Counted from the first letter of the stretch, positions 1 to 14,039 are shown. The stretch: 40,244 nucleotides of DNA from Bacteroidales bacterium (GCA_028282585.1 JANQHR010000153.1:1-40244); one strand, 5' to 3'. Translations and numbers: made by a program. The notes: generated from the letters alone by a model not told the origin.

Positions 1-90
1 CTACTAGTTTTAGTTTTAAAGAACTACAAGATAAACTTTGTGGCACCAGGTTTCAATCTGGAAGACCACTCGGGCCTATGCCTTTATCAT

Positions 91-218
91 AGTGGCTCAT
101 AAATCATGCGGGTGTTTGGTTGTATCCTGACTAAGTATTATATTCGTTAAGGTTTTTGGCGGGTTGACTGATAAAGTTGGATAATAACTCCCGCACGCAT
201 TCATACGCCAGGTTATAA
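91..218 (+). repeat. attC-like hairpin site S1 (left TTATAAC box missing or displaced)
   Basis: Arms TGGC..ATGCGGG / CCCGCAC..GCCA and right box GTTATAA at 212-218. The 30 bp at 127-156 (CTGACTAAGTATTATATTCGTTAAGGTTTT) are identical to 8337-8366 in S7. Confidence 0.75.
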
Positions 219-287
219 AAACATGGTTGTCATTGCGCCAGATTGAAAAGAATTAAATAAAATTGTATTTTTGTAGAAAAAGAAGTT

Positions 288-509
288 ATGAATATTCAAG
301 CAGAAAAAATAGAATTAATGAAACTGATACTTGAGACTGATAATCCAAGTATTCTCAGTTCGATAAAGAAAATCTTAAAGAAAGAGTCAAAGAAAGATTT
401 TTGGGATACTTTACCTCAATCTCAAAAGGACGAGATACTGAAAAGTATTGAAGAAATTGAAAATGGAGAGATAGTAGATTACGAAGATTTTATCAAGAAA
501 CATAAGTAA
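288..509 (+). CDS. Putative antitoxin (addiction module component-like)
   Basis: 73 aa with acidic C-terminus (DFWDTLPQSQKDEILKSIEEIENGE). Stop overlaps the start of a RelE/ParE toxin (TAATG). TATTTTTG -7 box at 266-273. Confidence 0.75.
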   Translation: MNIQAEKIELMKLILETDNPSILSSIKKILKKESKKDFWDTLPQSQKDEILKSIEEIENGEIVDYEDFIKKHK

Positions 510-814
510 TGAGTAGAAAGATTGTCCTCTCCAAACGTGCTTCCAAAAATTTAGAAAAGTTGCTTGAATATTTGGAAACTAAATGGTCAAAAAGAGTAAA
601 AGACAATTTTATTAAAAAACTTGACAGGTCATTACAAATTCTGAAAGATAAGCCTGATAGTTCTCCAAAATCTGGCATTGTAAAAGGATTATGCAGGTGT
701 GTTGTTACGAAACAAACGACCGTTTTTTACAAGTTTGACAGTAAGAATTTGTATGTTGTTACAATCTTTGATACTCGACAGAATCCGGACAAGTTGAAAA
801 AAGAAATTAAATAA
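509..814 (+). CDS. Type II toxin, RelE/ParE family
   Basis: 101 aa basic protein with IVLSKRASKNLEKLLEYL N-terminus and VFYK...YVVTIFDTRQNP C-terminus typical of ParE/RelE. Confidence 0.85.
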   Translation: MSRKIVLSKRASKNLEKLLEYLETKWSKRVKDNFIKKLDRSLQILKDKPDSSPKSGIVKGLCRCVVTKQTTVFYKFDSKNLYVVTIFDTRQNPDKLKKEIK

Positions 815-824
815 CAACCACGTT

Positions 825-958
825 TTATAACAGCATTTCAAACTTAAGCCGGGTGTTTGGTTGTATTCTGACTAAAAATATTATCTTTATTTTTTTAACG
901 GGGGATTGATAAACACGGCGGGAAATCCCGGCCAAAGCTTAAATGCGGGCCGTTATAA
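825..958 (+). repeat. attC-like hairpin site S2
   Basis: TTATAAC (825-831) ... GTTATAA (952-958). GCATTT[C]AAACTT pairs with AAGCTTAAATGC leaving an unpaired C. Inner GCCGGG/CCCGGC. Confidence 0.85.
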
Positions 959-1296
959 GTAAGGCGATTTTTTCAGAAAGGTAAACTGCTTTTTATTTTT
1001 TCAGGTTCGTAAATCAAATAATTTTTCTTTTCGGTTTGGCATCTTTTAGTAAGTTAGAAACTGTATCTCATTCTGACAATGAAAGTATTATTTCCATTCT
1101 TAGCAGTTTGACAGTTTGTTTATTTGAGATTGGTTTGGTAAGTGTGATAATAATAATTTAGTATTCCAGCCCGCTTTTTGTAGCTTTCAGCTGCATTTGT
1201 GCTTGCGTAAAGCACATTTGCTCCGCAAAAAAGCTTTAAGCTAATTGTTTATTTAATTGCGAAATTGAATTCATCTTTTCATTTTTTTAAAAATTA

Positions 1297-1329
1297 TTTG
1301 GAATAAACATTCCAAAATATATATCTTTG
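1297..1329 (+). promoter_or_regulatory. Bacteroidota sigma70 promoter overlapped by a putative TetR operator
   Basis: TTTG (1297-1300)-N21-TATCTTTG (1322-1329). Perfect inverted repeat TTTGGAAT-N4-ATTCCAAA at 1297-1316. ATG only 4 nt after the -7 box. Confidence 0.65.
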
Positions 1330-1333
1330 TAGT

Positions 1334-1885
1334 ATGAAAAGAAGAGAAGTAATATTAAATGCTGCTATTGAACTTCTAATAAAAAAAGGAGTACATAATA
1401 CACCTATGTCGAAAATTGCCAAAGCTGCTGGTACAGGTATGGGAACCATCTATAATTACTTTCCTAACAAGGAAGTACTGATCAATGAGATATACATGGA
1501 TATTAGAGTACAGGAAGAAGCATTGTTTTTGGAACTGAAAACTGATCTGCCCGTTAAAACACAATTTGAGATTTACCTGACTTCTATAATTGACTTTTTT
1601 GTTAAAAATCCTTCATATTTCCATATTATTCAGCAGTTAGAAGTTTCGCCTATAATCACAAAAGAAAATAAAGAAAAGGGTCGAAAACCAGTTGAAATGA
1701 TGGCTAAATTATTGCAAAGTGGTCAGCAGAACAGAATTGTCAAAAACATTGATATTGAAGAAATATTAATATTTATAAGTGGAGCTACTTTATCCTACTT
1801 AAATAGGTTTTGTAGCTTATCTGATAAAAAGCAAACATCACTAAAAAATCATATTCGTATGGTTTGGGATGGAATTAAAGAGTAA
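1334..1885 (+). CDS. TetR/AcrR family transcriptional regulator
   Basis: N-terminal HTH TPMSKIAKAAGTGMGTIYNYFPNKE. Confidence 0.95.
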   Translation: MKRREVILNAAIELLIKKGVHNTPMSKIAKAAGTGMGTIYNYFPNKEVLINEIYMDIRVQEEALFLELKTDLPVKTQFEIYLTSIIDFFVKNPSYFHIIQQLEVSPIITKENKEKGRKPVEMMAKLLQSGQQNRIVKNIDIEEILIFISGATLSYLNRFCSLSDKKQTSLKNHIRMVWDGIKE

Positions 1886-1902
1886 ATTTTTTTATTTATA
1901 TA

Positions 1903-1924
1903 TTGGAATGAATATTCATTCCAA
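1903..1924. promoter_or_regulatory. Putative second TetR operator
   Basis: Perfect 22 bp palindrome TTGGAATGAATATTCATTCCAA sharing the TTGGAAT half-site with 1297-1316. Confidence 0.65.
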
Positions 1925-1962
1925 AGATTATTTTTATATTATTAATTTAAAATTATTAAGCT

Positions 1963-2268
1963 ATGTATGAATTAACAAAAGAAGACATTCAGAATCTTGT
2001 AAACTACAGAGAGTATTTGAAATCGGTAAGAGAAAACTGTAATGACGAAGCGTATAAGTTATTACTAACAAAGAGTATTGAATTATTAACAGGTAATATT
2101 ACTTCAGAGACAATGCTTAAGTATTTAGAAAATGTAAAAAATAGTAAAGACGCTAAAGCTGAACTTAGTGAAGAAACTAAGGCGGCGAACAAAGAAGTAA
2201 TAAAAAAGGCAGATGAATTTCATCTTCATGCGATTATAAACAAAATAGTGAAAAGCCTAAAGAAATAA
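1963..2268 (+). CDS. Hypothetical protein (probable TetR-regulated gene)
   Basis: 101 aa ORF after the operator palindrome and before a terminator. No family recognised. Confidence 0.7.
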   Translation: MYELTKEDIQNLVNYREYLKSVRENCNDEAYKLLLTKSIELLTGNITSETMLKYLENVKNSKDAKAELSEETKAANKEVIKKADEFHLHAIINKIVKSLKK

Positions 2269-2298
2269 ACTGCAATAGTTTTGCTTTTGTAAGTATTG

Positions 2299-2332
2299 AA
2301 AAAGGATTGTTAGAATTAACAGTCCTTTTTTT
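2299..2332 (+). terminator. Rho-independent terminator
   Basis: AAAAAGGATTGTTA-GAAT-TAACAGTCCTTTTT stem-loop with T tract. Confidence 0.75.
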
Positions 2333-2494
2333 AATTATCTGACAAAATCAAACGATTTACAAACACTTTAGTAAGGCAAGCTTACCAAAAGTTTGTAAAC
2401 CAACTCATTTTGTCCCATCAAAATAAATTTGTTCTGAGTTTTCATGTTTAATTCTGTAACTAACTTGTCAAGTATGATAGCTTAAGCGCCCAAT

Positions 2495-2630
2495 TTATAA
2501 CATTGTTTCACCCTAGATTTGGGCTTTTTTGCGGTTTGACAAAGTTTGGGTATCTTCGAGTTTAATTAAACGGTCTGACAGCAAAAGTGCTGTAACTCCC
2601 AAGCGATAGGGTAAACAAAGACTGTTATAA
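2495..2630 (+). repeat. attC-like hairpin site S3
   Basis: TTATAAC (2495-2501) ... GTTATAA (2624-2630). TTGTTT[C]ACCCTA pairs with TAGGGTAAACAA leaving an unpaired C. Inner TTGGG/CCCAA. Confidence 0.85.
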
Positions 2631-2975
2631 GTAAGGCGAAAAAAGTAAAATCTGACAATTTCTACTAAAAGAATAGTTAATACAACTTGACAATTAATGT
2701 ATTTATTTCAATTCGTAGCGGTGTGATAGGTTGTTTTTTGAGCTTGGTGCGGTAGGTTTGATAAATAAAAAATTAGTATTCCAACGCGCTTTGCAGCCTA
2801 ACGTGTAATACTTCATAACTCTACTAATATATCTGTTTCTTATATTGGCCTAGTTGTATCGCAGGCATTCCATATCTGCTCAAATATTGGACTATTTTGA
2901 ACTTCAAGATTATCTGAATAGAATATGGTTGCCAATAGATAATAAAAAAATAAAATTTCGCTAATTAATAGTTAT

Positions 2976-4322
2976 TTATTCTTTTTTAGCAAATTCGGGC
3001 TCACCTCCATGATAGATAACTGTAATGCCAGAAACTTCAGTTCCATCTTTGATAAATTCAATTCTGAAATCATCATCCTTAAGAAAAAATTTTGTCTCCG
3101 ATTGCGCATAAAGCGTCATTGTGTTGTATGGAGATTTAAGTTTTAACGCTTTATCCTCATAAATAATATCGACGGACATCTTAAAAGATTCGATATAATA
3201 TGAACCTATATAATTTTCTATAATGTCCTGTGAAACCTGAACAGTTTCAATTGATTCAGGATCATAAGATTTCTCATTTAGTTTCTCGAATAATTCTTTA
3301 CCATAACAAAAATAACTCTCAATTATTCTTGAATAGACTTTGTCTCCAATATCGCTATTAGTAAAAACTATTATCCCCGATTTAGATTTTGGCATTACAA
3401 TAGCAATGGTTGATATACCCCATTCACCTCCTTCGTGTAGTAATGCAAATTCATCATTTGGTAAATTCCTAACAATTTGCCAACCTAATCCCTGATCTAT
3501 ATCCTCCTTTATATTTGCTTGTATTGAAATCATTTCTTCATATAAACTGTCTGAAAGCCCTGCCTTATTTATTGTATATATACAAAATTTTGCATAATCA
3601 TCAATTGTGGTTAATATTCCTCCGGCAGCTGATACTTTAAATCCTCCTTGATACTTATACTCTTCTCCATCAGAATTATGCCTGAATGCAAAAATTGAAG
3701 AGTCTATTTCCTCTTTCCATCTGAATCTTGTGTTTCTCATCTGCAAAGGATGAAACAAAATGGAATCAGATATTTCTTCAAAAGACTTATTTAGTTTGTT
3801 TTCAATTGCTTTTCGAAGATATTCGAAACCTTCTCCAGAGTAATTGTATCCAGTTCCAGGTTCAAACTGAAATTCAAGTTTTTTGGATTTAAGAGCAGTA
3901 CGCCAATTAGGCAAACCAGATTGATGATTTAAAATATTACGGACTGTAAGTTTCTTATGCCAATCATTATCTGCAATATCAGGGTCGATCCAATATTTAT
4001 ATAAAGGTTCATCTAATCCTAAGATTCCCTCTTCAATTAATTTTAAGATTACTGCTGTTGTAATTGTTTTCGTAACAGATGCGATAGAAAATACTGTGTT
4101 ATTTTTAGCAGGCGTACCTTCTCTAATTTCTCCAAAAACTTTATACTCTGAAAGTTTTCCATTTTTAATTAATCCTATCCCAACAGTTGGAACATTATAT
4201 TCTGTTAACCAATCCTCAATTTCATTTTGGGATTCTAATAAAGTGTTTATATTAGTTTGTGCCTGGATACCTAATACAGAAATAATTACAAAAAGGAAGG
4301 TTAAATTCAATTGCTTTTTCAT
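2976..4322 (-). CDS. Secreted serine hydrolase (beta-lactamase/AmpC-like, peptidase S12) with C-terminal DUF3471-like domain
   Basis: Signal peptide, SxxK (ASVTK), LNHQSGL, YSG and HEGG motifs. Confidence 0.9.
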   Translation of the reverse strand: MKKQLNLTFLFVIISVLGIQAQTNINTLLESQNEIEDWLTEYNVPTVGIGLIKNGKLSEYKVFGEIREGTPAKNNTVFSIASVTKTITTAVILKLIEEGILGLDEPLYKYWIDPDIADNDWHKKLTVRNILNHQSGLPNWRTALKSKKLEFQFEPGTGYNYSGEGFEYLRKAIENKLNKSFEEISDSILFHPLQMRNTRFRWKEEIDSSIFAFRHNSDGEEYKYQGGFKVSAAGGILTTIDDYAKFCIYTINKAGLSDSLYEEMISIQANIKEDIDQGLGWQIVRNLPNDEFALLHEGGEWGISTIAIVMPKSKSGIIVFTNSDIGDKVYSRIIESYFCYGKELFEKLNEKSYDPESIETVQVSQDIIENYIGSYYIESFKMSVDIIYEDKALKLKSPYNTMTLYAQSETKFFLKDDDFRIEFIKDGTEVSGITVIYHGGEPEFAKKE

Positions 4323-4619
4323 TTTCTTTATTTTTATTTTTTTCGATTAGGACGAAAAAAGATTGTATTTTGTTACAATCAGTTTTAATAGCTTGGTAAT
4401 CATTTGGGTTTTCCCAATAATCATACCAATATAATTACTTTAATCTGATTCCTTTTATTTTTTCTTCATTAATAATTGTAAAATCCATAATAATCTATTA
4501 GCTAAATATTAATAACTCTCTGTTCCAGTAGTAAAGAAACCCAGCCCAAATACTAATTTTTTAGTCTTTCATGGATAAGTTTTCGCTAAACTGACAAGTA
4601 TGGTGACACGTCGCCCAAC

Positions 4620-4770
4620 TTATAACATCGGGCCATAAAGCAAGGGGGTTGTTGTGATGGTTTGACAAGCATTTATTATATTTGTTTCTTCCGATAGCTA
4701 TCGGGAGTCAACGGGTGACCTTGAAACACGGCGGCGATCCCCGCCAAATTTTACCCGAAGATCGATATAA
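4620..4770 (+). repeat. attC-like hairpin site S4 (GAT-type right box)
   Basis: TTATAAC (4620-4626) ... GATATAA (4764-4770). TCGGG/CCCGA and GGGG/CCCC arms. Contains palindrome CCGATAGCTATCGG at 4691-4704. Confidence 0.8.
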
Positions 4771-4809
4771 GCAAATTTTATGAACACTCTGCAAATAATA
4801 AACACTAAA

Positions 4810-5901
4810 ATGAAAATAATGAAGAATCCATTTTTTTTAATTCTTATTAGCTTTTTAATTTCATGTAGTCAAAATAAAGAGAATAAATCATTTATTATAG
4901 ATGGTAAAATAGAAGGAATTTCAACTGGAAAAGCATTGATAGAATATTCTGATTTCAAAGACACAGCTGAAATAAAAAATGGACAATTTAATTTCAAAGG
5001 TACAGTTCAAAAACCAGAGATATGTAAAATTATAATTGAAGGATTTGAGCATCAAACAGAATTTTACCTCGAGAATTCCAAAATATCATTCTTAGGATAC
5101 GTTGACTCACTTGATAAGGTGAAAATATCTGGATCAAAAACTGAATATGAAAATTATACATACAACCAAATTCTTAATAAGTATGAGAGAAAGTTTCAAG
5201 ATATTGAAAATGAATATGAAGGAGCTAATGATAGTAGAAAAGAAGAACTTAAAAAACTCTATGAAAAGGCCGATTTAGAAATGGTTAAGGCACAAAAACA
5301 ATTTATAAAAGATAATCCCACATCGTACTTGTGCATAGGAATCTTAATTGAGCTTGATTGGAGTTTTAAAACAGCAAAAGAATACCAAGAGTATATTTCA
5401 ATTCTTGATACATCTCTAAATCAATATAAAAGACTAATTTCTTTAAAAGAACATGTTGGCAGAATGGAAAAGGTAGAACCAGGAAATATAGCTCCCGATT
5501 TTGAAATATCCGATATTAACGGTAATAAAATAAAGCTATCAGATCATTATTCAAAATCTAAGTATACACTACTTGATTTTTGGGCATCAACATGCGGTCC
5601 CTGCAGAATAGAGAATAAACACATACTGAAAGCATACAAAAAATATCATGATAAAGGTTTCGATGTTTTTGGTGTATCGCAAGACTCGAAAAAAGAATTG
5701 TGGCTAAATGCTATAAAAAAGGATAGTCTTGTTTGGACAAACACCTGCCACCTGCAGAAAGAAAGTACAAATGAATTAATTAAGATGTATGCATTAAATC
5801 AGGTATCAGCTAATTTTCTACTCGATAATACAGGGAAAATAATTGATAAAGATCTGCATGGTGAAGATTTGGAAATAAAACTTGCTGAATTATTTAATTA
5901 A
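4810..5901 (+). CDS. TlpA-like thiol:disulfide oxidoreductase lipoprotein (DUF4369 + AhpC/TSA redoxin)
   Basis: Lipobox LISC and LLDFWASTCGPC (CxxC). Start could also be 4780 or 4819. Confidence 0.9.
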   Translation: MKIMKNPFFLILISFLISCSQNKENKSFIIDGKIEGISTGKALIEYSDFKDTAEIKNGQFNFKGTVQKPEICKIIIEGFEHQTEFYLENSKISFLGYVDSLDKVKISGSKTEYENYTYNQILNKYERKFQDIENEYEGANDSRKEELKKLYEKADLEMVKAQKQFIKDNPTSYLCIGILIELDWSFKTAKEYQEYISILDTSLNQYKRLISLKEHVGRMEKVEPGNIAPDFEISDINGNKIKLSDHYSKSKYTLLDFWASTCGPCRIENKHILKAYKKYHDKGFDVFGVSQDSKKELWLNAIKKDSLVWTNTCHLQKESTNELIKMYALNQVSANFLLDNTGKIIDKDLHGEDLEIKLAELFN

Positions 5902-5917
5902 TTCAAATAAAATCAGC

Positions 5918-6050
5918 TTATAACAGCAAGTCACAGCACATGCGGGGTTTTGGTAGTTCACAGACAAAATATTATATTCGTGTTGGTTCTGTTCGGGTGA
6001 TGATGAAACAGAGCGAAACATCCCCCGAAATTCTTCGCTGTCAGGATCAA
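5918..6050 (+). repeat. attC-like site S5, right arm degenerate
   Basis: TTATAAC (5918-5924), CATGCGGGG arm and loop AATATTATATTCGT like S1/S7. No clear right box, so the end is approximate. Confidence 0.65.
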
Positions 6051-6166
6051 AAACAAAGATAGCTTTGAGTTGGTTTTGCCTTTCAGACTACTTGCTATTT
6101 CTATAACTGAAACATTGTTTTACTCCTTTGATCACTAGCTCTGTAATGTTAAGTTGGCCTTTGCTT

Positions 6167-6610
6167 TCAATTTAACAATGGGTAAATTTTAAGCCCTTCT
6201 TCTACCATCGTTTGCTGTCCATCCATATCAGTAACACTTAAACGAAAATCATAACTCCCAATCTGGGCATACACAGGAATCGCAATGCTTTTATTAAAAG
6301 TTGTGTCTTTCAAACCTGAAAATTCAGTAAAAGTTGTATCCACTTCCCATGAGCCATGCTTAACATTTAAACTGCTTTCATGTTCACCTTCAATATGGAT
6401 TTCAATGGTAACGACATCAATTTTTCCGGCTGCAATTATTTCCGCTTCAATAGGTAATTTGTTGCCTAAATACCCAATTTTGCTATTTTTATTACCTAAT
6501 TCATATAAAGTAACAAGTGGTTCTGGGTTTGTTGTATCATCTTTTTCACATGAAATGAAAAATAATCCTACCACAAAACCAATTACAATTAATAATACTC
6601 TGGTGTTCAT
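6167..6610 (-). CDS. Lipoprotein, DUF4625-like
   Basis: Lipobox FISC. IEAEIIAAGKID..IEIH..GEH and GSYDFRLSVTDMDGQQT resemble Bacteroidota DUF4625. Confidence 0.7.
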   Translation of the reverse strand: MNTRVLLIVIGFVVGLFFISCEKDDTTNPEPLVTLYELGNKNSKIGYLGNKLPIEAEIIAAGKIDVVTIEIHIEGEHESSLNVKHGSWEVDTTFTEFSGLKDTTFNKSIAIPVYAQIGSYDFRLSVTDMDGQQTMVEEGLKIYPLLN

Positions 6611-6907
6611 GTTTTACATTTACTTATTCTGTTATTTTTCTTTATTTATTTGTTAAACCAATATTGAAATCTTCAATATAAATTCCTTCGGTACAACTGG
6701 TATGTTTTAGTTTGTATCTACTGAATTATTAATCAGTTTCATTTGTTAAGTTTTAAATATATAGCATGAGGCGTTAAATTTATTAAATTATTTCAAAATC
6801 CCATTTAAAACATATTATTTAGCTCTTTCAAAACAAATTTGTTTTTGCTTCATGGCCAGGTTTATAATTAAATTGAAAAGTATGGTATTTTAGGTGTACA
6901 ATTTGCA

Positions 6908-7053
6908 AAAGCAGGTACTCATAATCCAAGCGGGTAACTTTATGGCCTAACATTTATTTGCTAATCTTATATTTTGGTGTCTGGTGACTCCTGATAGCTT
7001 TGGGAGAAACGCGGCTGCCTTCCACTTCGCTTGATACCCTAAGAACGATATAG
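6908..7053 (+). repeat. attC-like site S6, left arm degenerate, GAT-type right box
   Basis: CTCATAATCCAAGCGGG resembles the S1 arm. GAAACGCGGC...TACCCTAAGAACGATATAG resembles the S4 right arm. Confidence 0.6.
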
Positions 7054-7135
7054 ACAATAAATTTTTTGAAAAATGCTTGTAACCTTTTGGTGGTTAATTT
7101 ATCTAAACCACAATTAAGCATTAAATTTAAACGCT

Positions 7136-7465
7136 ATGATACTTATTCTTCCAATTGTTGCAGTCCTAGTTGTCGGATTTATTCTTTATTACATTAGAAC
7201 AAAAAATCAAGAAAGGTTGAAGCTTATTGAAAAAGGAATCAATCCAGATGGACAGAGTATTTCAGAGTTCCAAAAACAATCCAGTTTGAAAAACGCTGTA
7301 CTTTTTATTTCATTATCATTGGGACTATTTTTAGGTCACATCCTAACTATCAATTTTGAGCAACTTGATAATTTTATTACTTACTTGGCCATGTTTTTAT
7401 TATTTGGTGGTATTGGCTCTTTGATAAATTATTACCAAATGAGAAATTGGAGTTCTAAAAAATGA
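7136..7465 (+). CDS. Membrane protein, DUF6249-like
   Basis: RTKNQERLKLIEKG motif plus three hydrophobic segments. This family is commonly next to ECF sigma factors in Bacteroidota. Confidence 0.75.
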   Translation: MILILPIVAVLVVGFILYYIRTKNQERLKLIEKGINPDGQSISEFQKQSSLKNAVLFISLSLGLFLGHILTINFEQLDNFITYLAMFLLFGGIGSLINYYQMRNWSSKK

Positions 7466-7998
7466 ACAGTTCTGAAATTCTAAAAGAAGCTATCGCTGGA
7501 GACAAAAATGCACTCTCTATTCTTGTTGACAAGTATAAAGATATTGCTTTTAATCTTGCAATAAGTATTGTCAACAAAGAAGAAGATGCAAAAGATATTA
7601 CGCAGGACAGCTTTTTGAAAGTTTTGGAGAATATTGAGAACTTTAGAAATGAGTCTAAATTTTCAACATGGTTATATAGAATCGTATATAATTTATCAAT
7701 TCAATTTATTCGTAGCCAAAGGAAAATGGACTCAATCAAAAGTGTTTCTCATATTTTAACGGAAGCTTCTTCTGACACATTGGAAACTCATGAGAAAAAA
7801 CAAATAATAAAAAGCTCTCTTGATACGCTTGAAGAGAATGAAAGATTGATTATTACTTTATTTTATCTTGGAGAAAAATCTATAAAAGAAATCAAAGAAA
7901 TAACATCTCTTTCAATTTCAAACATTAAAGTTATTTTACATAGGTCAAGAAAGAAAATGGCCAAAAATTTTGAAAGATTGAATTATGAAAGAGTTTGA
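7462..7998 (+). CDS. ECF sigma-70 factor
   Basis: DAKDITQDSFLK, FRNESKFSTWLYRI (region 2) and SIKEIKEITSLSISNIKVILHRSRKK (region 4). Confidence 0.95.
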   Translation: MNSSEILKEAIAGDKNALSILVDKYKDIAFNLAISIVNKEEDAKDITQDSFLKVLENIENFRNESKFSTWLYRIVYNLSIQFIRSQRKMDSIKSVSHILTEASSDTLETHEKKQIIKSSLDTLEENERLIITLFYLGEKSIKEIKEITSLSISNIKVILHRSRKKMAKNFERLNYERV

Positions 7999-8299
7999 TA
8001 ATAAAATAAAAAGTCATGTTAAAGCAAACATGAGTAAAATTGAAGATGAAACTTTTACTTCAAGATTAGTTGCAAGGTATTTGTTGACAAGAAAGGAAAA
8101 AGTAAAAAAGGTTTTCTTCAATTTTGAAGCATTAATATTTTGGATTGTTGCTGTTTTGATAAGTATAGCATTGTTAACAGTGAAATTGATTAACGAGACA
8201 GTATTCTTTGAAATTCAGCTAAAACATTGCTTAATTTTAACTTCGTTGACACTGACAGCTTTGATATATAAATGGTTAGAAAAAATTTACTGTGTATAA
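7985..8299 (+). CDS. Putative membrane anti-sigma factor
   Basis: Overlaps the ECF stop, has two C-terminal TM segments, and its stop TAA lies within the GTATAAC box of S7. Confidence 0.65.
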   Translation: MKEFDNKIKSHVKANMSKIEDETFTSRLVARYLLTRKEKVKKVFFNFEALIFWIVAVLISIALLTVKLINETVFFEIQLKHCLILTSLTLTALIYKWLEKIYCV

Positions 8300-8430
8300 C
8301 GTTGGGTCATAAAGCATGTAGGTGCTTGGTGTTTTGCTGACTAAGTATTATATTCGTTAAGGTTTTACGGTTTGACTGACAAAATGAGAGAATAGCTCCC
8401 GCATGGCTTCATATGCCAGGACCTTTATAA
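8294..8430 (+). repeat. attC-like hairpin site S7
   Basis: GTATAAC (8294-8300) ... TTTATAA (8424-8430). Clear homologue of S1 with a 30 bp identical core and CTCCCGCA..TTCATA.GCCAGG arm. Confidence 0.8.
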
Positions 8431-8444
8431 ACAAGCTATTTAAA

Positions 8445-8487
8445 TGTCTTGTGCTAAAATTATGTCAACCTATTTTAGCACGAGACA
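8445..8487. other. 16-bp-arm inverted repeat in an ORF-less interval
   Basis: TGTCTTGTGCTAAAAT (8445-8460) / ATTTTAGCACGAGACA (8472-8487) with one G-T pair. Confidence 0.7.
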
Positions 8488-8610
8488 ATTTGCCTTAATT
8501 GCAAAAAAGCTTACAGTCAACCCAATTTATCCGACCCTAATACTAATTTTTTAGTTTTTCATATTGAGGTTTCTATTAACTTGACAAGCACGGTGGCATT
8601 GGTGCCCAAC

Positions 8611-8646
8611 TTATAACAGCATTTCAAATAAAATTCGGGTGTTTGT
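8611..8646 (+). repeat. attC-like site S8, left arm only
   Basis: TTATAACAGCATTTCAAA is identical to the S2 start and is followed by CGGGTGTTTG. Loop and right arm are absent. Confidence 0.7.
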
Positions 8647-8814
8647 TATCGGACAATTTAATTATTTATTATTCTCAATAAATTGACAGTGTCTTTTGAA
8701 AAAGGTTTGGTAAGCATGACATGAAAATATTTTAGTATCCTAACACGCTTTTGCCCTGATAGGCAACGTGAAAACTACAATTAAACACTTTTAGCAACGG
8801 AGTGACCAAAACGT

Positions 8815-9747
8815 TTAATCATATTTTAAACTGATCTTCTTGGAACTTATTAGTTTAATGGTTTCAGTATTTACACTATTTTTAGATAAATCGATAGGAT
8901 TACCACCCAAGTTTATTAATGGGCTTTGGTTTATACCTTTTATCCACCAAACTTTATATGAAGTGTCCCTGAACGCGCCATTGTTAATTAATTTACCTAA
9001 AATTGAAATATCGGATACATTATTAAAACTAATATCCAAAATTGTAAGCTTATTCATATTTTGAATAGGACTAATGTCTTCAATAAAGTTATGATTAGCA
9101 ATAAGGTACTCAAGTTTTGTAAAATTTTGAATAGAAGTTAAATCTTTTATATTGTTTCGATTAATCCAGAGTCTTTCAATATTTCCTAATTTTGACAAAG
9201 AACTCAGATTTTCTACTTTATTATCGTAAAATTCTAAAACTCTTAATTTAAGCAAAGAGCTCAATGGACTTATGTCTGTTATTTCCTTAGTATTGTTTAA
9301 ATATAATCGTTCAAGATTTATACAGTTTTGTAGTGGTGTAATATCATAGATTGATGTGCCACTTGCAATAAAAACTTCTAATTTTTTTAAATATCCTACA
9401 GAACTAATATTCTTAATTTCCGGATTAAGAGCAATGTTCAAGTATTTTAGTGAAGTTAAATATTCAAGTTGTTTTATTTCAGAAAGATTGCAATTTTGTA
9501 ATACTAGTCTCTCAAGGTTTATACAATATTCTAATCCGTCTAATGACTGTAATTCAATTTCTTTAACCTCTAATTCTTTTAAATTCAGTAAATCTGATTT
9601 TTTCAATTTATGATTAGTAATTAACAATTGTTCTGAAATAATTTTCTCAAGTTGACCATCTAAACCTATTTTGTTAGAACAATTATTGAAAACTAAAACT
9701 GATATTAAGATAACTGTTATGAATAACAAGCGTTTTGAAAATCTCAC
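8815..9747 (-). CDS. Leucine-rich repeat (internalin-like) lipoprotein
   Basis: 22-aa LRRs (LERLYLNN..ITDISPLSSL) and N-terminal signal with NNC. GTG start. Confidence 0.85.
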   Translation of the reverse strand: MRFSKRLLFITVILISVLVFNNCSNKIGLDGQLEKIISEQLLITNHKLKKSDLLNLKELEVKEIELQSLDGLEYCINLERLVLQNCNLSEIKQLEYLTSLKYLNIALNPEIKNISSVGYLKKLEVFIASGTSIYDITPLQNCINLERLYLNNTKEITDISPLSSLLKLRVLEFYDNKVENLSSLSKLGNIERLWINRNNIKDLTSIQNFTKLEYLIANHNFIEDISPIQNMNKLTILDISFNNVSDISILGKLINNGAFRDTSYKVWWIKGINQSPLINLGGNPIDLSKNSVNTETIKLISSKKISLKYD

Positions 9748-9903
9748 AATGATTGTTTTTATTTATTTTGTTAAAGTAATTATAAATATTTTAATACAAC
9801 CTTATTTTATATCAAATAACAGAAGAAATAGATATAATTCTAAGTATTAACAAAAACTTTGGCAAAATAAACACTGTCAGAATTATTTTATTACTTCTGA
9901 AAT

Positions 9904-10260
9904 ATGAATAGAAAAATAAAATATTATAAGCGGTTTGATAAAACAGGAAGTTGCAAGAATTAACCCAAAAGCTCAAATAATTCTTTACGATTCTCGTGCT
10001 TATAGAAACGAAAGATCAGGTTCTGATTGGGATATTTTAACTGACTATCTTATTAAAATTACAAAAGAAAGACAGTTTCGCAATGCTCTTTATGAATTAG
10101 AACTTGAGACATGAGAATCATTTTCTGTATTTGTTTATTCAAAGAATGACTAGAGACAAAAAGGAGATTATGAAAACTTATAAATTTGACTCAAAATCTG
10201 TTCTTCCTTTATTTGATCTAGTTCTTGAAATGATTCAAGCCATAGAAAAAGAATTAAAAA
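9904..10260 (+). pseudogene. Decayed MNT (nucleotidyltransferase)-HEPN toxin-antitoxin pair fused by deletion
   Basis: One frame reads KAQIILYDSRAYRNERSGSDWDIL...ELELET*ESFSVFVYSKND*RQKGDYENL*, then after a frameshift FDSKSVLPLF...IEKELK. This is a broken GSxAxG..SDxD motif followed by the HEPN (UPF0332-type) RQxGDY motif. Confidence 0.7.
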
Positions 10261-10264
10261 CACT

Positions 10265-10290
10265 TTATAACATGGTTTCAATCTTAAGGC
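10265..10290 (+). repeat. attC-like site S9, left arm only
   Basis: TTATAACATGGTTTCAATCTTAAGGC versus S2 TTATAACAGCATTTCAAACTTAAGCC, directly after the HEPN remnant. Confidence 0.55.
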
Positions 10291-10440
10291 AAGGCCATTC
10301 TATACATAATACCATCCAGAATTTTCTAAATAGAAAACATTCCCTCTTACGCTAACGGACATTTGGAAAAAGAAACATTTTTAGTATAAGTTATCTTTTC
10401 TCTTTTTTATACCTTTATCCGGAATTGTTAAGAAATCTAA

Positions 10441-11193
10441 ATGAAACTCTTATTATCCGTTTTTTTTCTATTTATGTTTGGAATGCTTCAAGGGCAGACG
10501 GCATTTATAAACAGACCATCAAAGACGCAAAGCGCAACTGTTTTGGAAAAAGGAGTACTCCAAATGGAAAGTACTTATGAAATAGAAATTTTAGGTGAAC
10601 CCGATGAAAGGGAAACAGAAATATTATTTCCGGGAATAATGATAAGGTACGGTCTGGGATGGGGCGTTGAATTGAGATTTGCTAATCAATATGAAACGCT
10701 GAAGGATAATTTGGGATCTGTGGATGGATTTACAGATATGGAAATCGGAACTGAAATTCAATTATTCAAGAGAAACGATAAAAAAGCTGAAGTTGCGCTG
10801 ATGAGCCACCTCTTTTTACCAACCGGGAGTGATGGCATTTCGAATGAACGCATTGGAAACGAAACTCTTGTGCTTGTCTGGCACGAAATTACTGAAAAAA
10901 TAGGTATCGAATACAACATTGGATACAGTAATTTCGAAGATGATTCTAAAAAAGGAGATTTTGTCTATTCCTTTGTAACAGAATATGAAATCAATGACCT
11001 GTCGGGAGTTTTTGTTGAAACCTATGGTTACCTGATCGAACTTAACGAACTTGAAGCTAGTATTGACTTAGGGTTTGCATATCAGTTTACCGATAATTTC
11101 GAACTGGATCTGGCTTTCGGAACAGGCATAAATCATAAAATGCTTTTTGCAACGATAGGTTTGAGTTGGAGAATTGGAGAGGAAGAGGATTAA
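10441..11193 (+). CDS. Outer-membrane beta-barrel, MetA-pathway-of-phenol-degradation/transporter family
   Basis: Signal peptide, NRPSKTQSATV..GVLQME, RYGL..VELR, HLFLPTGS and C-terminal GLSWRI. Confidence 0.75.
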   Translation: MKLLLSVFFLFMFGMLQGQTAFINRPSKTQSATVLEKGVLQMESTYEIEILGEPDERETEILFPGIMIRYGLGWGVELRFANQYETLKDNLGSVDGFTDMEIGTEIQLFKRNDKKAEVALMSHLFLPTGSDGISNERIGNETLVLVWHEITEKIGIEYNIGYSNFEDDSKKGDFVYSFVTEYEINDLSGVFVETYGYLIELNELEASIDLGFAYQFTDNFELDLAFGTGINHKMLFATIGLSWRIGEEED

Positions 11194-11521
11194 AAAAACT
11201 ATTTTTTTGCTGAGGTTCAGATAAAAGAAAAGTTAGCTGAAATTTTTACAAGGTAATTGGATATACAAAAAGATGAAAAATTTACAATATGCTTTTCGGA
11301 AGTAACTATCATAATAAGTTTTTTATGCTCTCTTGTTAAGTGCTTAACGAAGATACAACTGAGAAAAATGTAAGTTTAGAAACGAAACAATAGTTTTACT
11401 TTAATATGTTGGACAGGATAAATTAAATCAATTGAATTCTGAATAGATTTTAATAAGAAAGTCTGAGGGTTTAGATAATATAATTGACATTTAAACAAAA
11501 ATATTTAAAGTAAAAAACGCC

Positions 11522-11651
11522 ATATAACAAAGCTTCAAATTAAGGCGGGTTTTATAATGGTCTTACAAAAATGCTATTTTTAGATTTTATTAAAGTGATA
11601 CTGAAACAATGCGGCAGTCCCTTAAAATAGGCTACTCGAAGAATGATATCC
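11522..11651 (+). repeat. attC-like site S10, degenerate, GAT-type
   Basis: ATATAAC..TTCAAATTAAGGCGGG left arm. GTGATACTGAAACAATGCGGC..TACTCGAAGAATGATATCC matches the S4 right half. Confidence 0.6.
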
Positions 11652-11759
11652 ACAAAATAATTTCAATAAAACATTTGTTTAAATAAAAAAATTAATTTAA
11701 TAGTATTTGTATTCTTATAATTAGGTAAATTTGAATTTATTACTAAAAAACTAATAATA

Positions 11760-13121
11760 ATGAAATTAAAAAATCTCTTCAACCTACTTATTTATTTATG
11801 CTTTACTTATTTATTAGCGTCTTGCCACGGTGAAGACAAGTATATAAACCAGTGGCCACAATTTAGAGGACCATATGCAAGCGGTATTGTGGAAACCAAT
11901 AGCTTGCCTGATAAATGGGATGTAAAAACTGGGGAGAATATCCGTTGGGAAACTGAAATTCCTGGCTTAGGACATTCATCACCAGTAATTTGGGATAATA
12001 AATTATTTATAACCACTGCCATAAATACTTCGGGTAATGATTCCCTAAAAGTGGGTTTATATGGCAATGTTGCAAATTACAAAGATTCAGTAATTAAAGA
12101 ATTCCGGTTAATTTGTATTGATAAAAACAACGGACAAATATTATGGAACAAATTAGCACATAAAGGAATCCCAAAAACAAAACGTCATACTAAAGCATCG
12201 CATGCTGATCCAACACCAGCCACAAATGGCAAATATGTAACTGCTTTTTTTGGTTCAAACGGTTTATATTGCTATACGATTGAAGGAGAATTGGTTTGGA
12301 AAAAAGACTTTGAAAAAATGAATGCGGGATATTTTCTCACCCCGGATATAGAATGGAATGTTTCAAGTTCGCCAGTTATATATGATAACACAGTAATAGT
12401 TCAGTGCGACATTTTAGAAAATAGCTTTTTGATGGCTCTAGATGTTGAAACTGGCGAAATCAAATGGCGAGTAGATCGTGACGAAGTTTCTTCATATGGT
12501 GCGCCTACGATTTATGAATATAATGGCATAAAGCAAGTTATTGTAAACGGATTTAAACATATTGGAGCTTATAACTTCGATAATGGTGAAGAAATATGGA
12601 AAATGAGTGGTGGTGGGGATATTCCTGTACCAACTCCGGTAGTTGGTGAAGGATTAATCTTTATACATAGTGCGCATGGTAAAAGTTCGCCCATATATGC
12701 TATTAGCCCCAGTGCAAAAGGAGATATTACTCTTGAAAAGGATAGCCTTACAAATGAATATATTCAATGGAGTATTAAAAGAGGCGCTGGTTATATTCCA
12801 ACAGGCTTTGTTTATGGTAAATATTATTACAATTTAGTAGGTTGGATTGGGCGCCTAACATGCTACGAGGCTAAAACGGGAAAGCAAATTTATCAGGAAA
12901 AGTTACCTGAAACAAGAGGCATTACAGCATCCGGAATTGCTTCAAATGGAAGGCTTTACTTTACATCTGAGCAAGGTGATGTGTATGTTGTAAAGGCAGG
13001 TGAGCATTTCGAAATTCTTGGACAAAATTCTTTACATGATATTGTTATGGCTACTCCAGCTATTTCCGATAATACATTATTTTTTAGAACACAAAATTCA
13101 TTAATTGCCGTGGGACAATAA
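11760..13121 (+). CDS. PQQ-binding-like beta-propeller lipoprotein
   Basis: Lipobox LASC, WPQFRGP, GHSSPVIW and repeated LxA/CxDxxTGExxW motifs. Confidence 0.9.
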   Translation: MKLKNLFNLLIYLCFTYLLASCHGEDKYINQWPQFRGPYASGIVETNSLPDKWDVKTGENIRWETEIPGLGHSSPVIWDNKLFITTAINTSGNDSLKVGLYGNVANYKDSVIKEFRLICIDKNNGQILWNKLAHKGIPKTKRHTKASHADPTPATNGKYVTAFFGSNGLYCYTIEGELVWKKDFEKMNAGYFLTPDIEWNVSSSPVIYDNTVIVQCDILENSFLMALDVETGEIKWRVDRDEVSSYGAPTIYEYNGIKQVIVNGFKHIGAYNFDNGEEIWKMSGGGDIPVPTPVVGEGLIFIHSAHGKSSPIYAISPSAKGDITLEKDSLTNEYIQWSIKRGAGYIPTGFVYGKYYYNLVGWIGRLTCYEAKTGKQIYQEKLPETRGITASGIASNGRLYFTSEQGDVYVVKAGEHFEILGQNSLHDIVMATPAISDNTLFFRTQNSLIAVGQ

Positions 13122-13493
13122 ATATATTAGAAATTTTAAGCAACAGGCCGTAAGCATGAGGAGCGCATTTTGGTCAAATTATACCATTTGTTTGAGCTTA
13201 CATGAGTGATCACCTAACAACCTACAAAGGACGAAGACAGGCGGAAAATGAACTAGGATCATTACAATTAAAAATTAATAGTAAAGGAAAGTCAAATGGA
13301 TAAACTATATTTTAAAATCAAAAAAGATCAATTTTAATAGTAATATACATTCTCTTGATTAATGGATATATTTTGGGTAAACTCCGGTTATGGTTCTTTG
13401 GAAATAACAAATAGGTTTAATACATAGTTAAAAAAATTTAAAGTATGGTTTTGCCATGAATCTTAAGATTCAAAATTTAAAACCCTAAAAACA

Positions 13494-14039
13494 ATGATTA
13501 CAAAAAGCCTACAGCCATGGATTTTAGCAGGATACGAAATATTTGCACTCGAAGGGCCAAATGCACTTAAGGTTGAAGTGCTTTCCCGAAAAGTAAATAA
13601 GAGTAAATCATCTTTCTACCATCACTTTGCTGACTTGGAAGTTTTCACCGAGTTCCTTTTAAAATATCATGTCGAAAGAGCTAAAATATTAGCAGAACTT
13701 GAAGGAAATTGTAAAGCTATTGATCCAGAATTAATAAACGTGATCGTTGACTGCAAACTGGATTTACTTTTTAACAGACGACTTAGAATAGATAGAACAA
13801 ATGAAGCATTTAGAGTATGCTTTGAAAAATCAAACTATCTGGTTGCCGAGGCGGTTATTAGTCTTTGGGCAAATGAACTCGGATTAACAAATGATAAAGG
13901 TTTGGCAAAACTTGTTTTTGGATTAGCGCTTGAGAACTTTTATCTTCAGATAACCGAAGAAACTCTAAATTATGAATGGTTATCAGAGTATTTCAATAAC
14001 ATAAGAAAAATGGTGGAAGGTTTAAAAAGAAATCAGTAA
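13494..14039 (+). CDS. TetR/AcrR family transcriptional regulator
   Basis: LKVEVLSRKVNKSKSSFYHHF HTH. Confidence 0.9.
   Translation: MITKSLQPWILAGYEIFALEGPNALKVEVLSRKVNKSKSSFYHHFADLEVFTEFLLKYHVERAKILAELEGNCKAIDPELINVIVDCKLDLLFNRRLRIDRTNEAFRVCFEKSNYLVAEAVISLWANELGLTNDKGLAKLVFGLALENFYLQITEETLNYEWLSEYFNNIRKMVEGLKRNQ

Follow-up and report, generated by a model that had tools for sequence, protein, structure and literature searches.

Cassette ends in a Bacteroidales integron-like array carry private complementary arms with a fixed internal mismatch

We analysed a 40,244-nt stretch of DNA from a Bacteroidales bacterium (hereafter the window), which is the entire contig C77 of its source genome (labelled G000; 4.89 Mb, 32% G+C). 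Positions 1–11.7 kb of the window are the distal end of a large sedentary integron-like cassette array in this low-GC Bacteroidota genome, and attC-like hairpin sites of 120–160 nt stand between the cassettes. The two ends of each cassette carry arms that are complementary to each other, and this complementarity is private to the cassette; the finding holds for more than 80 cassettes of two genomes, with examples in at least five other assemblies. We consider it reasonably probable that the arms are the extended R arm of a new integron variant, restored in the free cassette and read by the array's own recombinase. Integrons are the standard example of recombination guided by DNA shape over sequence, with an R box taken to be 7 bp. 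Arms that are private to each cassette and contain a fixed internal loop offer a clean and testable structural element, one that could reveal which features of a folded strand are read by a tyrosine recombinase lacking the IntI domain.

Complementarity, anatomy and folding of the cassette ends

Sites were mapped with an iterated nhmmer profile built from the window's own sites, which recovered 36 attC-like sites on 12 contigs of the source genome. Briefly, sites were aligned to the profile with the C of the left box (...TAAC) and the G of the right box (GTTA...) as anchors, and every cassette start was scored against every cassette end (+1 per match, −1 per mismatch, −2 per gap, best prefix). 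Five end pairs had been named in an initial annotation of this DNA, and all are present and far above chance: 212–230 with 814–831 (11/18 paired ungapped, 17/18 with one gap), 952–966 with 2487–2501 (12/15), 2624–2639 with 4611–4626 (14/16), 4764–4779 with 5909–5924 (13/16) and 7047–7066 with 8281–8300 (17/20). These pairs score 16, 10, 12, 12 and 15, respectively, and a sixth window unit (8424–8617) scores 5. Across the source genome, cognate ends (the start and end of one cassette) reach a mean of 9.7 (n = 20 cassettes with both ends), compared to a mean of 4.0 and a 99th percentile of 10 for non-cognate start/end pairs (n = 1038; Mann–Whitney p = 5e-7) and a mean of 4.1 for the two flanks of a site as it stands in the array (n = 30). 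The same comparison was made in G008, a complete related genome in one contig whose recombinase is 73% identical and is followed by about 69 sites on one strand over about 134 kb. Its cognate ends average 13.4 (n = 67 cassettes) against 5.3 for non-cognate pairs (99th percentile 11, n = 4490; p = 1e-37) and 5.8 for own-site flanks (n = 67); 48 of the 67 cognate pairs lie above the non-cognate 99th percentile, and for 48/67 starts the cognate end ranks first among 68 ends. These figures are conservative, because missed sites between distant neighbours would make false "cognate" pairs. The comparison of cognate with non-cognate ends, put forward in the annotation as a statistical check on its pairs, thus comes out far in favour of the cognate ends in two genomes, and the accompanying remark that a site's own flanks pair far less well holds in both, these flanks lying at background level.

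Counted from the G of the right box, the arm opens with an invariant GTTA/TAAC at positions 1–4 (matching in 99–100% of all G008 pair classes), followed by private base pairs at positions 5–8, a conserved TAAT opposite ACAA at positions 9–12 with 10–11 unpaired, and further private base pairs from position 13 to about 20; the consensus reads GGACC|GTTA-N4-TAAT and ACAA-N4-TAAC|A. Positions 5–9 are paired in 87–96% of G008 cognates compared to 33–47% of non-cognates, positions 12–15 in 81–85% of cognates, and the two blocks together in 81–96% versus 24–47%, with pairing at background by about position 22. The annotation had seen mismatches recurring around positions 10–11, and these prove to be a regular part of the arm, paired in 15% and 1% of G008 cognates, respectively, and bordered by mostly T.A pairs at positions 9 and 12. 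The mismatched bases are fixed: of 57 G008 cognates in which 8 or more of the first nine positions pair, 48 have A facing A at position 10 and 53 have A facing C at position 11. Read on the bottom strand, the loop consists of a T.T mismatch (position 10) and a T.G wobble (position 11) and lies one helical turn away from the cut. This AA/CA asymmetry is kept in 94–97% of arms, so the two arms are not interchangeable. Contiguous pairing from the G extends over at least 9 nt in 54/67 G008 cassettes, and after the loop ungapped pairing continues for 0–14 nt more (median 6). The private positions covary: paralogous G008 cassettes of ~367 nt carry TAGG/CCTA, TGTG/CACA, GTGG/CCAC, TTGG/CCAA or CAGG/CCTG at positions 5–8, and a homologue of the window's first complete cassette (cassette A; locus L050) has changed G to A at position 13 in both arms relative to the window.

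The sites themselves have the layout of integron attC sites: imperfect inverted repeats (R''-L''...L'-R') that keep AAC/GTT and enclose a variable centre. Their consensus bottom-strand fold, from 56 folded sites drawn from the 67 listed in G008 and four of the window, contains an R stem (TAACG/TGTTA), a 4-nt bulge, an L stem and a predicted conserved unpaired G. The L''/L' arms of one site covary strongly, with compensatory changes in 15 of the 25 predicted pairs of the L stem, and two G.T pairs are conserved in 54/56 sites, where the top strand would have A.C mismatches. The bottom strand is predicted to fold more stably than the top in 53/65 G008 units. As the annotation had proposed, circularising a unit in silico rebuilds one long hairpin: bottom-strand junctions made of a cassette's end, its site and its own start fold at −31.9 kcal/mol in G008 (65 units), whereas the same sites with the array neighbour's start reach −23.6 kcal/mol, 8.3 less stable, and 13 units of the source genome give −21.2 versus −17.2 kcal/mol. 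The rebuilt stem is ~20 bp long and worth about −8 kcal/mol.

These observations suggest a model in which strands are exchanged within the right box's invariant GTTA, the simplest point being G|TT, as for integrons, so that the right arm of every array site belongs to the next cassette. In the array state, the arm is a hybrid of two cassettes, paired only over GTTA. In the excised circular cassette the ends would meet, and the single-stranded bottom strand could fold the full outer stem onto the L stem. This outer stem, whose loop sits one helical turn away from the cut, would serve as the R-arm binding site of the array's tyrosine recombinase, and selection on the free cassette, at capture or at re-insertion into attI, would keep the arms complementary; that selection acts on the free cassette would follow from the restored stem being the R-arm site. 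The anatomy of the arms, their privacy to each cassette, their covariation, the strand asymmetry of the wobble pairs and the setting of array, recombinase and attI-like junction are observed, whereas folding of the single strand in vivo, recognition of the outer stem by a protein and the step at which the stem would act are inferred. The split and restored forms of the arm could control excision versus capture.

The array recombinase and its relation to known systems

The array recombinase is encoded not in the window but on a different contig (C169), where its gene is followed by a co-oriented site of the type of window site S2. This 376-aa protein is the best integron-integrase-family match in the source genome, and no better IntI candidate stands among the 10 matches examined. 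TIGR02249 gives it 214 bits where the cut-off is 265, the match falling into two stretches that leave out model positions 179–237, and its best family is NF040815 (XerA/integron integrase), at a borderline 221 bits against a cut-off of 220. Compared to VchIntIA (2a3v), the recombinase has 22 residues where that chain has 65, and it aligns in one piece with the XerA structure 5hxy. It thus shows neither the additional domain nor the above-cut-off score by which IntI proteins are recognised, and its alignments identify it as a Xer/IntI-like tyrosine recombinase without the IntI-specific insertion, not a canonical IntI. It carries ~95 extra N-terminal residues, of which the first 65 are predicted to form a beta-beta-alpha-beta-beta-alpha arrangement; this domain matched no Pfam family, and the Atlas gave unnamed clusters only.

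The recombinase lies directly upstream of the array and co-oriented with it in G000, G008, G023, G003 and G015. An attI-like junction, ...TATAAAC(A/T)A|GTTA, was recognised by eye 100–170 nt past the recombinase stop in about 14 of 17 loci, other families of the order included, and was confirmed by a cognate cassette end in G000, G008, G003 and G015. The rule of start/end complementarity located the first cassette 155 nt past the stop in G008; it begins about 100–135 nt past the stop in G003 and G015, and on C169 of the source genome it starts as ...AACTA|GTTATGCAT.... At two further loci, L014 (G017) and L017 (G004), the assemblies break exactly at the GTTA of the junction, and several more recombinase loci lie at contig ends; such breaks would be expected from strain-level variation of the first cassette in metagenome assembly.

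A search of 41 genomes, the source genome included (E ≤ 1e-60), matched the recombinase in 23 genomes and 10 of 17 genera. In G008, the 20 kb upstream of the recombinase hold no sites. The same arm rule applies in arrays behind recombinases that are only 36–44% identical (G003, G015 and G031), which come from other species of the genus and from another family of the order, and in G031 it found cassette boundaries where the site model failed, a use to which it may be put elsewhere. Separately, 20 kb of G008 (126027–145867 of the concatenated stretch, L038–L039) are without a detected site and bounded by non-cognate ends, and could be a very large cassette, an insertion or a region of too-diverged sites.

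Like classical integrons (class 1, Vibrio), this system has co-oriented cassettes between imperfect hairpin sites, left boxes ending in AAC and right boxes starting with GTT, a crossover that sets a cassette's first bases opposite its own left box, and a tyrosine recombinase adjoining an attI-like junction; the covarying L stem and the asymmetric spacer are likewise shared, and the predicted unpaired G and predicted bottom-strand bias would be so too. Unlike them, it has an arm of 9 bp followed by a fixed 2-nt mismatch and further pairs, with a conserved TAAT/ACAA, a recombinase that lacks the IntI insertion, bears an extra N-terminal domain and points the same way as the cassettes, and a conserved promoter-like site interior. 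In two papers (PMC2727003, PMC7439510), the likeness among attC sites is limited to two heptanucleotide R boxes, other sequence not being conserved, and cleavage falls between A and C of RYYYAAC. Our own class 1 control comprised seven cassettes from three plasmid arrays, selected by a perfect 7-mer match and therefore at least 7 nt by construction (aadA1, in two arrays, had no perfect 7-mer and was left out, and a truncated catB3 unit gave no pair); its cognate pairing runs contiguously over 7, 7, 8, 8, 11, 12 and 12 nt, with no second block. A modest extension is thus not unique to the Bacteroidota system, whereas the 9 + 2 + N architecture with its fixed loop is, the classical side of this comparison being a small class 1 control and published papers. 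The annotation's suggestion of an extra outer recognition stem fits this picture, given the conserved TAAT/ACAA at positions 9–12, the covarying private positions and the absence of a second block from class 1.

Resemblance to XerA and XerC/XerD is seen in the best family (NF040815) and the one-piece alignment with XerA, and the paired arm up to the conserved element, about 11 nt, has the length of a Xer arm. Unlike Xer/dif recombinases, the protein has the extra N-terminal residues noted above, and it lies beside long hairpin sites at the head of a cassette array (up to 134 kb; five genomes), a context that argues against a single ~28-bp dif site near the replication terminus as its substrate. 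Foldseek aligns the full-length model with full-length chains of lambda integrase over 362–363 columns (5j0n_G, 1z1g_A), in rows dominated by the catalytic domains. This modelled likeness, with its implied two kinds of site and N-terminal arm-binding domain, is only a lead; unlike lambda-type integrases, the protein belongs to no N-terminal sequence family that we found, and we identified no arm-type sites here.

According to the IntegronFinder 2.0 report (PMC9024848), Bacteroidetes hold a single complete integron, and a 2024 preprint places Bacteroidota among the clades without integrons. We found no published description of the present system in the full-text literature searched, a body that stops short of subscription journals and supplements. 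The phylum is thus reported to be nearly integron-free, yet G008 carries about 69 sites over about 134 kb behind a non-IntI recombinase. More tentatively, and with the balance of probability on the other side, such arrays could represent an unrecognised class of very large chromosomal integrons of Bacteroidota, run by a Xer-like recombinase without the IntI insertion, in which a private two-part "address" (private pairs on either side of the fixed TAAT/ACAA loop) exists only when a cassette's own ends meet and lends competence to the free or looped-out cassette. Such a system would have a switch of its own, from storage, with the arms split and pairing poorly, to mobilisation, with the stem restored.

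Extent of the mobile unit and alternative roles of the arms

The units always abut hairpin sites at the invariant TAAC and GTTA, and as a rule no transposase is associated with them. The same cassettes were found elsewhere with the same boundaries and different neighbours, one of the checks that the annotation had proposed. Among G008 duplicates whose cargo is 90% identical or more, identity is 0.83–1.0 for the downstream site and 0.64–0.94 for the upstream one, against a background of 0.69 ± 0.08 for random pairs of G008 sites. Parts of the window recur at 90–99% identity beside other neighbours on contigs of four metagenome runs from another study: one piece starts at 212 behind 35 unlike letters, one ends at 212 and is unlike thereafter, two end at 830 and 832, and one contig carries an S0-type site, 17 other letters and then the sequence from 950, with cassette B directly behind and cassette A absent. 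The pieces that start or stop at 212 agree with a crossover in the right box, as do own-site flanks that fall to background past position 4 while cognate ends pair.

Homologues of cassette A were sought by a ParE protein search that yielded 80 loci of other genomes, filtered for ungapped arms. One locus gave a convincing pair, L050 (78% identity), with 21/22 arm positions paired and the only mismatch at position 11; three weak matches were taken as chance. Locus L052 (91% amino-acid identity), whose arms contain a 1-nt gap missed by the filter and were found by eye, has the same arms, a different upstream site and a different downstream cassette, and at both loci, which belong to two other Bacteroidales assemblies, the interiors are other or remodelled. 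The filter found no arms at L051 (77% identity) or the remaining loci, so the putative toxin–antitoxin pair also exists outside arrays. An L' arm matching cassette A had at one point been placed upstream at L052; this was rejected, as the upstream site pairs with itself on folding. No cassette is common to the source genome and G008 (blastn E ≤ 1e-10, at least 50% coverage), all 44 listed pairs lying within G008.

The annotation took the cargo plus the downstream site as the mobile unit, and this stands for the G008 duplicates, which keep their downstream site, and does not cover the cassettes that occur with differing interiors. The latter belong to a set of observations that weigh against an extended, recombinase-read R arm. 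A ~490-nt cassette without an evident ORF has at least four copies in the source genome (~90% or more identical by the look of the alignment) with three unrelated site interiors, similarity ending 1–2 nt past TAAC, and one metagenome contig holds cassette A (212–831) followed by another site interior from 832; different interiors after the same cassette mean that the left-box junction is at times also a breakpoint, a behaviour not expected from G|TT crossovers on the bottom strand alone. Furthermore, were the outer stem needed every time, poor excision would be expected of array sites, which pair over just 4 bp; classical class 1 cassettes too show some extension past 7 nt, mismatch types elsewhere in the arms are without clear strand bias, and 19/67 G008 and 8/20 source-genome cassettes score at or below the non-cognate 99th percentile, some of which may carry an inserted element or span a missed site.

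The breakpoints at the left box are what would be expected if the cargo alone were exchanged, with TAAC| and |GTTA both crossovers, the arms acting as inverted half-sites in double-stranded or cruciform DNA and the interior a separable scaffold. The four non-coding copies, the metagenome contig and the interiors at L050 and L052 all speak for this reading, and cassette ends joined without the interior would form the palindrome TAAC|GTTA. We nevertheless regard it as unlikely, given that G008 duplicates keep their downstream and not their upstream site, that L'' and L' covary strongly within a site, that the AA/CA asymmetry makes the arms non-interchangeable and that the conserved G.T pairs favour folding of one strand.

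Pairing that decays away from the cut might also be a functionless relic of cassette genesis, left by an inverted copy or a long ancestral hairpin cut by the recombinase, and to our knowledge the origin of integron cassettes has not been established. A copying remnant would not, however, be expected to hold a fixed non-complementary AA/CA at positions 10–11 beside semi-conserved T.A pairs, and the compensatory changes in paralogous and orthologous cassettes, as well as the same architecture beside such divergent recombinases, make a relic quite improbable. Slightly less probable again is a role in RNA, in which the 5' and 3' ends of a cassette transcript would pair for the processing or stability of unit-length mRNAs. 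The plus strand does hold most cargo genes, and a conserved promoter-like interior motif is directed into the next cassette, but the conserved wobbles pair only on the bottom (antisense) strand and become A.C mismatches on the sense strand, several cargo genes lie on the minus strand with arm orientation unchanged, and bottom-strand folds are the more stable in most units. Chance or composition, by which AT-rich ends sharing a GTTATAA consensus would merely look complementary, could draw on the frequency of TTATAAC (31 window matches versus 13.9 expected) and on one cassette family with similar arms (GTTATAAGTAAGGCG...) that yields the highest non-cognate scores, yet it is refuted for practical purposes by non-cognate and own-site pairs of the same composition and consensus that stay at background in two genomes, and by many arms that are not of the TATAA type (e.g. 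GTTACCAAC, GTTAACGG and GTTGTGCG).

Feature map of the window and further observations

In the window, nhmmer site matches lie at ~83–220, 817–970, 2483–2642, 4611–4781, 5910–6029, 6891–7065, 8282–8443, 8600–8660 (partial) and 11515–11662 (S9). The profile finds no more sites in the window beyond S9, so the window holds one end of the array. An Rfam scan of positions 1–14000 gave no match at E ≤ 1. The cargo is mixed, comprising a ParE-family toxin with a small upstream ORF, a TetR regulator, a beta-lactamase-fold hydrolase, an AhpC/TSA protein, DUF4625 and DUF6249 proteins, an ECF sigma factor and a leucine-rich-repeat protein. The features are as follows (Pfam assignments where families are named).

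1–90, plus strand: 3' end of a cassette truncated at the contig start; degenerate left box TTTATCAT ending at 90 (model alignment of sites)
91–211, plus strand: interior of site S0 (L'' arm, variable loop, L' arm); nhmmer 83–220, short spacer before the right box, CCAG|GTTA
212–831, plus strand: cassette A; arms 212–230 / 814–831, arm score 16
288–509 and 509–814: cassette A ORFs, the first without a Pfam family, the second of the ParE toxin family; probably a toxin–antitoxin pair
832–951, plus strand: interior of site S1 (nhmmer, alignment, consensus fold)
952–2501, plus strand: cassette B; arms 952–966 / 2487–2501, arm score 10
1334–1885 and 1963–2268: cassette B cargo, a TetR-family regulator and an ORF
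1123–1177: 5' module of cassette B, common to other cassettes (repeat families D4/D5)
2502–2623, plus strand: interior of site S2, which shares its type with the first site behind the recombinase on C169
2624–4626, plus strand: cassette C; arms 2624–2639 / 4611–4626, arm score 12
2976–4322, minus strand: cassette C cargo, a beta-lactamase-fold serine hydrolase (PF00144)
4627–4763, plus strand: interior of site S3 (nhmmer, alignment)
4764–5924, plus strand: cassette D; arms 4764–4781 / 5907–5924, score 12, starting with GATA, not GTTA
4780–5901: cassette D cargo, a DUF4369 and AhpC/TSA thiol-disulfide protein
5925–6045, plus strand: site S4; left box and L'' arm intact, right end approximate, as no GTTA-type right box was found here and the nhmmer match (5910–6029) ends at model position 127
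6046–6909, plus strand: decayed unit E, both ends off consensus
6167–6610, minus strand: unit E cargo, a DUF4625 protein
6910–7046, plus strand: interior of site S5; degenerate left box TTTGCAAAA (nhmmer, alignment)
7047–8300, plus strand: cassette F; arms 7047–7067 / 8280–8300, arm score 15
7136–7465, 7462–7998 and 7985–8299: cassette F cargo, a DUF6249 protein, an ECF-type sigma factor and an ORF
8301–8423, plus strand: interior of site S6; right box TTTA at 8424 (nhmmer, alignment)
8424–8617, plus strand: short unit G; ends non-cognate, score 5
about 8445–8495: remnant (~50 nt) of an insertion sequence (IS) end in unit G, directly past position 21 of the unit start
8618–8690, plus strand: site S7, 5' part only; nhmmer 8600–8660 covers model positions 5–65 only
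8695–8751: copy of the 5' module, into which S7 runs (repeat families D4/D5)
11515–11662, plus strand: site S9, the last in the window; left box ends at 11528, right box GATA from 11645

The ~490-nt cassette, with copies at C169:~1370–1860 (minus strand), C55:~7930–8423, C85 and C170:2285–2775, is the first after the recombinase, and a portion of it recurs at the end of contig C169; it may have a regulatory role or encode a structured RNA. In a further cassette family, unrelated cargo is enclosed by common modules (~200 nt on the 5' side, in the window at 952–1177, 2624–2792 and 8695–8751; ~80 nt on the 3' side, at 2440–2501, 4545–4626 and 8535–8617) and by similar arms (GTTATAAGTAAGGCG... / ...CGCCCAAnTTATAAC), an arrangement that looks like a reusable carrier frame. 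Cassettes of 5–8 kb in G008 are flanked by the same arm type.

Six right boxes of the source genome read GATA for GTTA (window 4764, 7047 and 11645; C34:107, C64:185 and C170:11975), and the left boxes matching them still read TAAC; none of 68 G008 right boxes has GATA. These may be inactive sites or a tolerated variant. In five G008 cassettes, an IS3-family insertion sequence lies exactly past position 21 of the cassette start (loci L031–L037, e.g. L032:7465–8841). Three copies are 100% identical over ~1376 nt, one of them in the first cassette after attI, and the remnant in window unit 8424–8617 sits at the identical offset. The target sequences on either side are not alike, so the element seems to choose the arm's outer edge by its position or structure.

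Every site interior carries on its top strand a TTTG...(about 22 nt)...TAnaTTTG-like motif directed into the next cassette (e.g. window 862–900, 2530–2570 and 4660–4700), which is similar to the Bacteroidetes −33/−7 promoter consensus. If this motif is a promoter, each site would drive the cassette behind it, in contrast to classical integrons, whose cassettes lack promoters. Another conserved motif of the interior, AACGGgtGAc..tGAAACacGGcgg..CCC, stands just 5' of the L' arm (e.g. 905–935, 4715–4750) and could be an accessory binding site, for example for the extra N-terminal domain of the recombinase.

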